From assembly GCA_928721565.1 (NCBI GenBank), contig OV788638.1, forward strand, positions 1,666 to 65,665: a DNA stretch of 64,000 nucleotides, written 5' to 3'. The notes below the pieces were generated by a model. The model had not been told where the DNA came from. It did no database searches and was given only the letters and a program-made list of their open reading frames with translations. Shown here one piece after another: positions 51,922 to 64,000 of this stretch (positions are counted from its first letter, which is position 1; each line of letters begins with the position of its first letter). This stretch comes from an uncultured Clostridia bacterium (lineage in GTDB: Bacteria; Bacillota; Clostridia; TANB77; CAG-508). Both the position numbers and the translations under genes were made by a program.

Positions 51922-54900
51922 CTATGGAGTTATTATAAATGTCTTCCTTATTGTTTGTATTAATGTATTATTATAATAAGCTTTAAATACTAATTTGTAT
52001 TCTCCTGTGTTTATGCCTTTCTTTATTGCTTTATCAAAAGCTATTGTTTCGATATTTTCTCCTTGTGATGTTGATGGATGTGCTTTCTTTTCCATTACCA
52101 TATATTCTTTACATCCGTCTGCTGTTATTAATCCTTGTTGTTCATCCTCTGGTGTTTTCCAATCTCCATCTAAGTAATCTTTTAAGTCTACTTTTGTATA
52201 ACTTATTCCATTGTATGATTTTGTTCCATCTTCTGATGTAGTATAAGTGTCATTACGCTTGTATAATTCAACTCTTATGTTTGTATCATCTGTAGGTGAA
52301 CCAATCTTAACTGTTAAGTCTAATCCGTCTCCTCCATCTAAATTCAAACCAGTGTTTTTATTCATAATTCTGCTACCATCAGCTGATTCTAGTCCAGCTA
52401 AGCCTAGTTTTTTATTAATAAATGTTATATAAATATCTTTTACTTCTGTTGTCTCTCCTCCATAATATGAACCATCATCTGAAGCAAAGAAGTATACTTT
52501 TGCTATATATTGACCTGCTGGTACATTGCTTTGGCTTAATGATAATGCATATGAATTTTTAATTTTAGCAAGTCCTCCTCCAAGAGGAACTCTTATTACT
52601 CCATCTGCACCTGCAGTGTAAACTGTTGAATCAGTTTCATCTGTAAGTTTTAGATTTTGAACATCTGGTGCTTTTATTCTTTCACCATGTTCATCAACAA
52701 TTTCGATTGCTAAACCTGTCTTTTTACTATAATATTTAGTATCTTGAATATTTGCACCATCTGCAGTTTTTTGCTCTAATAATGAGCTATCAAATGTAAA
52801 TGGAATTGTTAAATTCTCAAATACTGAATATGCTGTTTTTCCATCATTAGTTGTAACATCTTCAGACATTGTAGCATTTTGGTTATATAAGTTATATTTT
52901 AATGTTTTGTTTCCATTGCCATATTTTTTAGCACCTGATGAGCTTCTTAATTCTAAATATGTTTCTTGTGCTAGTTTGTTTGTATCTATATTAGTATCTC
53001 TGAAGTCTATTGAAACATCATATTTTTCTAATGCATATGGTACATGTGCTATTCTAGTTATGTTATTACTATGCCAATATTTACTATTATCATCAGTGTA
53101 TTTACTGCTTGAACTTGTTCCACCCATATCAATGAACTTAGATAATTTGTATAAATATCTTGTAGTTCCAGAAGAATTATCAGTATAATCATAATCTGTG
53201 TCACTAGCAACTTGATAATAATAAACTTTGTTTAAATTATCACCTTGTCCATAATCTCTTAAAGTAATTTTAGTTCCTTTAGCCAATGGAGTTGAAGTTG
53301 ATAACACTCTATAATCTCCTGATTCATAGATATCATCAAATTGCCCCAATTTAAAACTTACATAAGATATATCAACAGAACTATCAGTTGTGTAATTCAA
53401 CTCTGTATTTGTACTGTTAGTAAATCTTGGAATATATGCACCACTTTGGTCATATTCAGATAATGACTGAATATTTACTGCTATAACAACTTTAAATGTA
53501 TTGCCAACACTTGCATCTTCTCCTTTTCTAGCTTTACCAGTCAATATAATATTTACATATCCTAAATCTGCAGTTTCAGTAACATTAACTGAATTGAATA
53601 ATTTAAAGATTATCTTTCCTGGATCAGTTGAATTGTCAGTCTTAAATGTTGTGTCTCCATCAAAAGAACCATTAGAATCTGTGTAAATATTTGTAGTTCC
53701 AGTCTTTAGCCAGCCAGAGTTTGATGTTTCCATTGTCATTCCAAAAATATAATTAGCATTTTCACCATGTGTTGGTACTGACAATTTATTAATCAAATTA
53801 ACACTTGTAGCTAAAGCATTTGCACTTACCTTGTCAACTGTGAATGTTGTTCCATTGTAAGAAACATCATTTACAAATTTCTTAAAGTTAAGTTCTAGTT
53901 CTGCCATTGAATATGTTGAATATGTTGAAGCAATTAATGATGTATTATAATTTACTATGTCTGCTCCTATTATCCAATCATAATATGATCCATAATCTGT
54001 AACATCTATAACCTGAGGTACTGCAGTTGATTCTGAAACAACATTTGTATAGAATCCATCAACTGTAATATCATGGCTTGGTTTGTGTCTACCTTCGATA
54101 TATGTACCATTAGCAAACATATTAGTTGTTGCAGCTCCAGAATAATTTGGTGCATATATGTCATACTCTTTAGCTCCTGTTGTACGACTAATTCTGTACA
54201 TTCCGAAGAATGCCATACCTTTAACATCACCCCAGATGTCTTCATTAGCTCTATCAGCTAATTCTCCTTCTTGTTTAGCAAAGATTAAGTTTACACCTTC
54301 AAAAGTATATAATCTATTATCAACATTTCTTGTAACTGTATTGTTATCAATAGTTGCAGTAGCTTTTGTAGTTGAATTGTCATCAGTTGTTAATAAACTT
54401 TCAAATCCTCCAACCATGTTAAATCCTTTTTGTGTATATAATGTTGAATTATCAAGTAATGCTAATCCGTTTGTAACTCTATTTAGAGTATAACTTGTAT
54501 TTTTATAGTAATTATATTTATCTTGAGCTCCAGTCAACTCTAGATATGAATTCTGAATAGATACTTTACCTGTTCTTTCGATAGATACCATATTATAAGA
54601 ACTTGTAGAAGTTCCAAAATCTTTTATCTTAACTGTTGAACCATCTTTTGAACCAGTTGGAGTGTAATTTGAACCATTTCCAGATCCAAAAATCCTTCCA
54701 TTAAATGTTATTGGAGATTCTTTACCATTGTCTAAAGTTATATGTGTTTCACCATAAACACTTGTTGCACTATAATCTTGGGTATCTATAAATCCTCCAC
54801 CATACATATACCCCCATATATTTATATTTCCGGCAATTAATGTAGAATCTGTTACAGCATCTTTACCAATATTGATATTTGTATTTCCATATACAGTTCC

Positions 54901-64000: not shown

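Follow-up and report, generated by a model that had tools for sequence, protein, structure and literature searches.

The closest described counterparts of the system reported here are the tapA-sipW-tasA operon of Bacillus subtilis and the sipW-bsaA genes of Clostridium perfringens, in which genes for a signal peptidase of the archaeal or endoplasmic reticulum type stand beside genes for small beta-sandwich proteins. In this study, a 64,000-nucleotide stretch (the window) of contig OV788638.1 (positions 1,666 to 65,665 of the forward strand, assembly GCA_928721565.1) from an uncultured Clostridia bacterium was analyzed, with a focus on a giant gene that fills its last 12 kb and on the SipW-like peptidase genes that follow it. 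Our findings suggested, with a probability that we place at about 0.55, that the giant gene encodes a secreted, rod-like adhesin of 4.6 to 7.4 thousand amino acids (kaa), which forms a dedicated part of a conserved surface cluster of about 18 genes. We regard the system as an uncharacterized variant of the SipW/TasA-type surface systems; a literature search returned no description of the cluster or of the giant genes of these organisms.

The likeness to tapA-sipW-tasA extends to the gene arrangement, with a larger accessory protein encoded first and with peptidase and substrate genes that overlap or abut, and to a hydrophobic segment followed by a T-[YFW]-A-type motif (PMC9245690, PMC10151520, PMC7395162). 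However, the cluster here encodes five peptidase paralogues where that operon has one, together with at least six distinct small proteins, and the position of TapA is taken by a 4.6- to 7.4-kaa protein of leucine-rich repeats (LRR), immunoglobulin-like (Ig-like) domains and a probable solenoid. Further members of the cluster are an AAA+ protein of the McrB kind, a protein with DUF2357 and three proteins without a transmembrane (TM) segment, and its hydrophobic N-termini are unusually conserved. None of its proteins matched PF12389/TasA or TapA or reached the SipW equivalog cut-off. An earlier reading of this DNA, made from the letters alone (the sequence-only reading), had likened the layout to TapA-SipW-TasA; the SipW-type array agreed with that comparison, whereas TapA and TasA could not be matched by sequence. 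The role that it suggested for the giant protein, as the anchored base or a tip adhesin of the fibres, is a hypothesis.

A further comparison is provided by Pyrobaculum, where AbpA is a TasA-like jelly-roll pilin recognizable by fold alone; its multi-domain partner AbpB has been suggested to initiate the filament through donor-strand complementation and to serve as an adhesin (PMC9245690). A donor-strand role has been proposed for both TapA and AbpB (PMC10151520, PMC9245690). The logic proposed for AbpB is the one that we propose for the giant protein, although the operon of the archaeon encodes no peptidase of its own (PMC9245690) and no AAA+ module, and AbpB has 410 amino acids (aa), not thousands. 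The giant fibrillar adhesins of Gram-positive bacteria (Ebh-type, AgI/II and PrgB-type) resemble the giant protein in having a Sec-type signal (apparent here in the orthologues), a stalk of tandem beta-sandwiches and an LRR-type putative binding block. They differ from it in that the giant protein has no LPXTG, S-layer homology (SLH), LysM or choline-binding element at either end, and its conserved part is a C-terminal solenoid and Ig chain that co-occurs with the SipW cluster.

The linkage of the giant gene to the SipW array was strongly supported, because the neighborhood was kept in 25 of 25 lineages. When metagenomes were scanned with the C-terminal module of the giant protein as the seed, 80 loci were obtained, corresponding to 25 lineages at 70% identity, and these loci were searched with all cluster proteins of the window. 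Cluster genes were found in 77 of the 80 loci, the remaining 3 having less than 1.3 kb of flank, and they stood beside the big gene in every lineage. A SipW-like gene lay in the fetched flank of 21 of the 25 lineages and in 48 of the 51 loci whose downstream DNA spanned 2.5 kb or more; the other 3 still had X538, a conserved cluster gene. The pairing of giant gene and SipW array in orthologous loci, a question raised by the sequence-only reading, was thus borne out. Relatives of the last 926 aa of the giant protein extended down to 27% identity, and relatives of 950 to 1,500 aa that appeared to stand alone were, where checked, fragments or broken genes.

The cluster comprised about 18 genes, all on the minus strand, from about 36.6 kb of the window to beyond 64 kb. 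After the giant gene, the order was F, G148, S267, A213, S177, B195, X347, X517, X374, S191 and C215, followed by a 45-aa open reading frame (ORF), X538, S202, S232, D232, E261 and Y392. In a relative at 33% identity, orthologues of all window genes from F to C215 followed in the same order. Distant lineages, in which the big ORF was complete at 2.7 to 3.3 kaa, showed the order E261, Y392, big gene, X538, S267, A213, S177, B195, F, X347, X517, X374, S191, D232, with Y392 directly upstream of the big gene and E261 also upstream. The features downstream of the giant gene were as follows.

50963 to 51839, minus strand: gene F, N-terminal TM protein (TM segment, then G-R-Y-V-Y), split
51501 to 51512, minus strand: conserved TTA CGG TAT TAA junction of gene F, candidate site of a +1 frameshift
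50339 to 50785, minus strand: G148, conserved small protein of the cluster, TM segment at the N-terminus, no family match
49512 to 50315, minus strand: S267, SipW-like paralogue, serine kept, catalytic histidine missing, Lys/Thr-rich tail
48867 to 49508, minus strand: A213, TM segment then R-M-Y-A-L-Y, paralogue of C215
48356 to 48889, minus strand: S177, archaeal-type signal peptidase I (SipW-like)
47788 to 48375, minus strand: B195, TM segment then R-T-L-A-R-Y
46729 to 47772, minus strand: X347, conserved, no TM segment, no family match
45129 to 46682, minus strand: X517, McrB-like AAA+ protein, single TM segment at aa 62-80
43978 to 45102, minus strand: X374, DUF2357 protein (McrC N-terminal-like)
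43400 to 43975, minus strand: S191, archaeal-type signal peptidase I (SipW-like)
42756 to 43403, minus strand: C215, TM segment then R-T-Y-A-R-Y-F
40969 to 42585, minus strand: X538, conserved, no TM segment, next gene after the big one in distant lineages
40338 to 40946, minus strand: S202, archaeal-type signal peptidase I (SipW-like), best TIGR02228 score
39625 to 40323, minus strand: S232, archaeal-type signal peptidase I (SipW-like), acidic tail
38895 to 39593, minus strand: D232, TM segment then N-T-Y-A-W-F
37965 to 38750, minus strand: E261, TM protein, C-terminal W-x-E-G-D-D-P-E-C shared with Y392
36625 to 37803, minus strand: Y392, TM segment then S-T-Y-A-W-F
36572 to 36602, minus strand: strong terminator-like hairpin of 14 pairs at the downstream end of the cluster

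The conservation of this neighborhood bears on a different explanation, in which the giant protein would be an independent fibrillar adhesin on an uncleaved N-terminal membrane anchor and would merely neighbor the SipW array, through a common island of surface-protein genes or common regulation. A weak hairpin and a promoter-like site do separate the giant gene from gene F, giant adhesin genes also occur apart from the pairing, as one without the C-terminal module lies directly upstream in one relative, and the N-termini of the orthologues are signal-anchor-like, with no obvious A-x-A site near the hydrophobic segment. However, the neighborhood was kept in all lineages, down to 27% identity, despite the reordering of genes, which would be difficult to account for if the genes were not functionally coupled. 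Conservation in the protein also lies in its C-terminal module and not at its anchor end, and we consider an independent adhesin unlikely.

The frame of the giant gene ran on the minus strand from position 63999 to a stop at 51922-51924, and its 4,025 sense codons remained open at the window edge, as the sequence-only reading had stated in describing an ORF that fills the last 12 kb and runs on. The GC content of the window was 29%, at which the frequency of stops was estimated at approximately 0.08 per random codon and the chance of such a frame at approximately e^-330; the giant frame is therefore not a chance product. The window was chromosomal, with genes for RNase J, GltX, UvrA and PNPase downstream. 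A megablast search of window positions 44-64 kb against plasmid and phage collections gave no match, and a mobile element is therefore not indicated. The giant gene and the parts of its product were assigned as follows.

51922 to 64000, minus strand: giant ORF, C-terminal 4,025 codons plus stop; 5' end beyond the window; collinear with orthologues of 4.6 to 7.4 kaa
62680 to 63999, minus strand: aa 1-440, first array of self-similar, beta-rich modules of about 145 aa, putative Ig-like (self-comparison; no Pfam match)
61825 to 62667, minus strand: aa ~445-725, DUF285/PARCEL LRR-type repeats (Pfam, NCBIfam, self-comparison)
57880 to 61632, minus strand: aa ~790-2040, second, longer array of modules of about 145 aa, putative Ig-like stalk (self-comparison)
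54775 to 57492, minus strand: aa ~2170-3075, probable beta-solenoid, start of the core kept in distant relatives ([YF]GG period, AlphaFold 2)
51925 to 54774, minus strand: aa 3076-4025, conserved C-terminal chain of Ig-like beta-sandwich domains (AlphaFold 2, Foldseek)

Only the LRR-type block of the giant protein matched any Pfam or NCBIfam family. It scored 123 bits against DUF285 (PF03382, cut-off 25) and 85 bits against PARCEL (TIGR02167, cut-off 30) at aa ~445-725, with a repeat period of 29 aa and copies 70-75% identical. The BspA-type LRRs described in the sequence-only reading were therefore present as LRR-type repeats, and their family was DUF285/PARCEL; LRR_5 (PF13306) was not matched in the window's protein in the Pfam scan and occurred in one fragmentary relative. 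Chunked self-comparison revealed the two arrays of about 145-aa modules (aa 1-440 and ~790-2040), which had no family match and were seen as internal repeats only, and a second repetitive zone at aa ~2500-3075. A [YF]GG motif recurred every 25-30 aa across aa 2433-3066.

An AlphaFold 2 (AF2) model of the last 1,200 aa, built on a 29-sequence alignment (mean predicted local distance difference test score, pLDDT, 84.6), was all-beta. Its first ~230 residues formed strand pairs with a period of about 25-30 residues, and its final ~950 aa formed consecutive beta-sandwiches. Together with the [YF]GG zone, the periodic strand pairs probably represent a beta-solenoid. The sequence-only reading had proposed a beta-helix of about 600 aa and a long Ig-like array: the former gained support from the [YF]GG period and the modeled strand pairs and had no Pfam match, while the latter was supported by AF2 and Foldseek for the last ~950 aa, the N-terminal arrays being self-similar modules without a family match. 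In Foldseek searches against the Protein Data Bank (PDB), the C-terminus matched Ig-like chains, with the Ig-like domains of PrgB (E 3e-11) and the C-domains of AgI/II best; RbmA, alpha-2-macroglobulin, the stalk of a large adhesion protein and an S-layer protein of an archaeon were also among the matches. Sequence searches of the PDB with three segments of the giant protein gave nothing useful.

Only window aa ~2210-4025, the solenoid and Ig chain, aligned with distant relatives, which indicated that the N-terminal LRR and Ig arrays are lineage-specific additions. The best-conserved stretch of the C-terminal module was its last ~30 residues (G-E-Y-K-L-x-F-K-x-Y...). A CdiA-like toxin-delivery protein was considered and rejected, as the C-terminus of the giant protein is its conserved part and is wholly Ig-like; a phage tail fibre was rejected as well, phage genes and phage hits both being absent.

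The protein ended in ...TIRKTFIITP, and the absence of LPXTG, SLH and choline-binding elements that the sequence-only reading had noted was confirmed by motif, Pfam and NCBIfam scans. Across the 4,025 aa there was no LPXTG-like motif, no SLH, LysM, choline-binding or other anchor domain in Pfam and NCBIfam, and no hydrophobic segment (best 19-residue Kyte-Doolittle mean 0.97); six cysteines were present, and NCBIfam returned PARCEL repeats only, with no TapA match. The absence of any kind of anchor within these residues would suit a giant protein that is released as a matrix, coat or cell-to-cell scaffold, similar to an S-layer or a biofilm matrix, and co-assembles with TasA-like fibres outside the cell. 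The Foldseek matches to RbmA, a scaffold protein of biofilms, and to the archaeal S-layer protein point the same way, and the fibres of TasA and BsaA belong largely to the extracellular matrix (PMC7395162, PMC9245690). However, LRR and Ig arrays are typical of adhesins and the fold matches are generic, and we judge a released scaffold to be quite improbable.

The N-terminus of the giant protein was approached through its orthologues. Contigs of the same species were all broken inside the giant gene, and a protein search with the first 400 aa of the window's protein returned fragments only. Relatives were obtained from 28 genome loci, several of which, at 21 kb, were open end to end in one frame. 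Window residue 1 corresponded to residue ~3280 in locus L001, ~3294 in L009, ~3194 in L016, ~1941 in L011 and 575 in L003. When three overlapping loci of one UMGS1852 contig were merged, an uninterrupted ORF of 7,417 aa was obtained, followed by the same downstream cluster, and in genomes with a C215 orthologue named 'Clostridium sp. CAG:356' the giant gene was called at 4,622-4,628 aa. From these orthologue ORFs of 4,622 to 7,417 aa, the full window protein is therefore expected to have about 4.6 to 7.4 kaa.

In eight orthologues, a good AACGGAGGA-type ribosome-binding site preceded a start made of a Lys-rich n-region and a hydrophobic segment. Their N-termini read M-x-K-K-R-K-N-V-R-K, then about 18 hydrophobic residues, then K-[DE]-x-Y-[AS]-P, which suggests a Sec-type signal or anchor. 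The N-terminal 3,300, 3,300 and 575 aa of three orthologues, scanned against Pfam, contained extra DUF285 blocks and no SLH, LysM or other anchor; a standard anchor such as SLH at the N-terminus, which the sequence-only reading had named as evidence that would count against it, was thus absent from these parts. In distant complete relatives, N-T-[FY]-S-E followed directly after the hydrophobic segment, and a T-[YF]-[AS] pattern was common to the N-termini of the distant giants and the small proteins of the cluster. In this position, after a hydrophobic segment, T-[YF]-[AS] fits the -3/-1 rule of signal-peptidase cleavage.

Further giant genes were observed in the relatives. A second giant ORF of at least 2,753 aa lay directly upstream of the 7,417-aa orthologue (L024/L016/L058, USMB01000002.1 70886-111831) and shared its Ig-like modules and DUF285 repeats but not its conserved C-terminal module. 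Other contigs, such as CASEEU010000015.1, had giant genes in tandem arrays of two or three. In the closest relative of the window's N-terminal part (L009, 3860-3940), a frame change in a poly-A run (AAATAAAAAAAC) broke up the giant gene, which may be either an assembly error or slippage-prone phase variation.

The SipW-type array that the sequence-only reading had placed after the giant gene was confirmed, as four paralogues exceeded the TIGR02228 cut-off of 51.85 bits: S177 with 69.6, S191 with 79.4, S202 with 109 and S232 with 61.6. These four kept the catalytic Ser and His and are apparently active. The fifth, S267, scored 35.9 bits and is probably inactive. None of the five reached the B. 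subtilis SipW equivalog NF046067 (190 bits). The tail of S267 was Lys/Thr/Ala-rich and about 100 aa long, and the protein measured 267, 277, 278 and 289 aa among same-species contigs, which suggests repeat-length polymorphism in a probable pseudo-peptidase. The S177 gene overlapped both of its neighbors, A213 and B195, and such overlaps suggest that small-protein and peptidase genes are translationally coupled.

One N-terminal TM segment each was present in A213, B195, C215, D232, F and Y392. The motifs that follow, of the general form T-Y-A-x-[YF], were compared with the TIGR04088-type motif, which we take to be G-T-[FWY]-A-x-F. By eye, T-Y-A-W-F (D232, Y392), R-T-Y-A-R-Y-F (C215) and the N-T-[FY]-S-E of the distant giants resemble that presumed form, the N-T-Y-A-W-F of D232 being presumably the closest to the canonical SipW-type motif. 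A search of ten N-termini for a TIGR04088-type signal (NCBIfam, E up to 10) gave no match.

The AF2 model of C215 (pLDDT 72) showed an N-terminal helix and a beta-sandwich (jelly-roll). Among 350,542 PDB chains, its best match was the TasA fibre 8aur (E 2.5e-3, probability 0.98, TM-score 0.30), and the archaeal TasA homologue AbpA (7ueg) ranked ninth. C215 was 70-80% identical across species, the hydrophobic segment included, and this segment and the R-T-Y-A-R-Y-F-E-K-V-D-T-T-Y after it were conserved as much as or more than the rest; such conservation would be unusual for a cleaved, disposable signal peptide. In the index of the assembly collection, a close C215 orthologue occurred in 1,757 blocks. 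Y392 belonged to an uncharacterized family of 960 representative clusters (E<=1e-3) with no Pfam family, in which T-Y-A-W-F after the TM segment and W-x-E-G-Q-D-x-D(-C) near the C-terminus were invariant or nearly so and some members were fused to Ig-like adhesin domains.

The 'small TM-anchored protein' at 51501-51839 of the sequence-only reading turned out to be the zero-frame N-terminal part of gene F. In the window, gene F consisted of 112 aa and a further ~151-153 aa in the +1 frame, whereas it was a single ORF of about 290-300 aa in eight lineages. The split was conserved across the window's clade at [AT]CT [TC]TA CGG [TA]AT TAA. Dropping the C of CGG gave ...DKVSL-GINSADGPTS..., which aligned with intact gene F orthologues, and CGG accounted for 0 of the 76 Arg codons of the giant gene. 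Gene F looks like either a case of programmed +1 frameshifting at a hungry CGG or an old insertion with both halves kept. No family match was found for gene F or G148.

X517 was the most conserved protein of the cluster. It matched the AAA+ domain of Escherichia coli McrB (6hz4, E 1e-4) and the PADLOC family PDC-M26A (E 8.6e-36), and the adjacent X374 matched DUF2357 (37.2 bits, cut-off 23.3) as its sole family; X347, X374 and X538 had no TM segment. The pair thus resembles McrBC in its McrB-type AAA+ domain, in the McrC N-terminal DUF2357 and in the adjacency of the genes. It differs from McrBC in the TM segment of X517 at aa 62-80, which presumably could stand in place of the DNA-binding domain of McrB, and in its synteny with surface-protein genes over 25 lineages. 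An inserted defence island was considered and rejected, as order and presence were kept with the cluster across lineages and X517 was 76% identical where the giant C-terminal module was 33% identical. These patterns suggest a non-restriction role for this McrBC-like module.

The same proteins form the basis of the main alternative, a doubtful one, namely that the cluster serves to export and mature the giant protein as specialized machinery and not as a fibre system, in which X517, X374 and the non-TM proteins would energize or chaperone export, the SipW paralogues would process, and the small proteins would be pseudopilin-like or accessory. Such a machine would agree with the conservation of X517, X374, X347 and X538 in order beside the big gene, and with the presence of a TM segment next to an AAA+ domain of the McrB kind in X517, a protein far better conserved than the giant module. 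However, to our knowledge McrB-family proteins are known from restriction and not from secretion, and no translocon-like or ABC component was found among the cluster proteins. The Y392 family, with its 960 representative clusters, also far exceeds the giant-protein family, which suggests that Y392-type proteins have a function of their own. A system of the tapA-sipW-tasA type needs no nucleoside triphosphatase (PMC9245690, PMC10151520), which favors a separate machine, but SipW-type peptidases act on Sec substrates (PMC7395162, PMC9245690).

The 45-aa ORF between C215 and X538 (~42582-42719, minus strand, placed from relatives) overlapped the start of X538 and was called in every same-species and related contig. 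Perfect 12/12 matches to a sigma-70-type promoter occurred on the minus strand at 38802-38830 and 36481-36509, upstream of E261 and of a coiled-coil-like 150-aa ORF (35900-36352), respectively, and there may be internal promoters within the cluster.

In the favored reading, the giant protein is an adhesin that would be exported by Sec via the N-terminal signal seen in its orthologues and would probably be processed by one of the SipW paralogues of the cluster. Its retention at the surface would be independent of the wall, the conserved C-terminal module docking non-covalently to a fibre or platform of small, weakly TasA-like subunits; alternatively, its processed N-terminus could be paired in a donor-strand-like manner. 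The lineage-specific LRR and Ig arrays would form the distal adhesive part. A more specific proposal, which we regard as possible but rather doubtful, is that the cluster is a distinct, NTP-dependent and so far undescribed appendage system. Several TasA-like subunits, each matured by a SipW paralogue of its own, would build a heteropolymeric fibre or platform, on which the LRR/Ig adhesin would be mounted by its C-terminal module in place of wall anchoring, while the membrane-anchored McrB-like AAA+ protein and its DUF2357 partner would drive or control assembly from the cytoplasm, a use of the McrBC module outside defence.

Several observations weigh against an adhesin displayed in this manner. 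The small proteins matched no Pfam (PF12389) or NCBIfam TasA model, PF12389 was absent among 42 members of the Y392 family, profile searches of PDB sequences gave no TasA match, and C215 appeared to be only weakly like TasA by the fold of its model. The fold matches of the giant C-terminus, in the PDB and BFVD alike, were generic Ig-like chains. In the window's clade, the Y-[AS] motif lay 8-12 residues past the hydrophobic segment and was followed by Pro, which is unfavorable to signal-peptidase cleavage, and the N-terminus may stay a membrane anchor in this clade. Export and processing are predicted from the N-termini of orthologues, that of the window's protein lying beyond the edge. Finally, the X517/X374 pair and the non-TM proteins would play no part in the mechanism that we favor.

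The host belongs to an uncultured, small-genome lineage of the human and animal gut. A gene of 14-22 kb represents about 1% of the 1.55-Mb source contig and therefore must matter to the cell. If the favored reading is true, the cluster would represent a new, sortase-independent way to display very large proteins by means of a SipW/TasA-like structure. Donor-strand and TasA-type biology would then be extended from matrix fibres to adhesin display, and the McrB/DUF2357 module would gain a role outside restriction.

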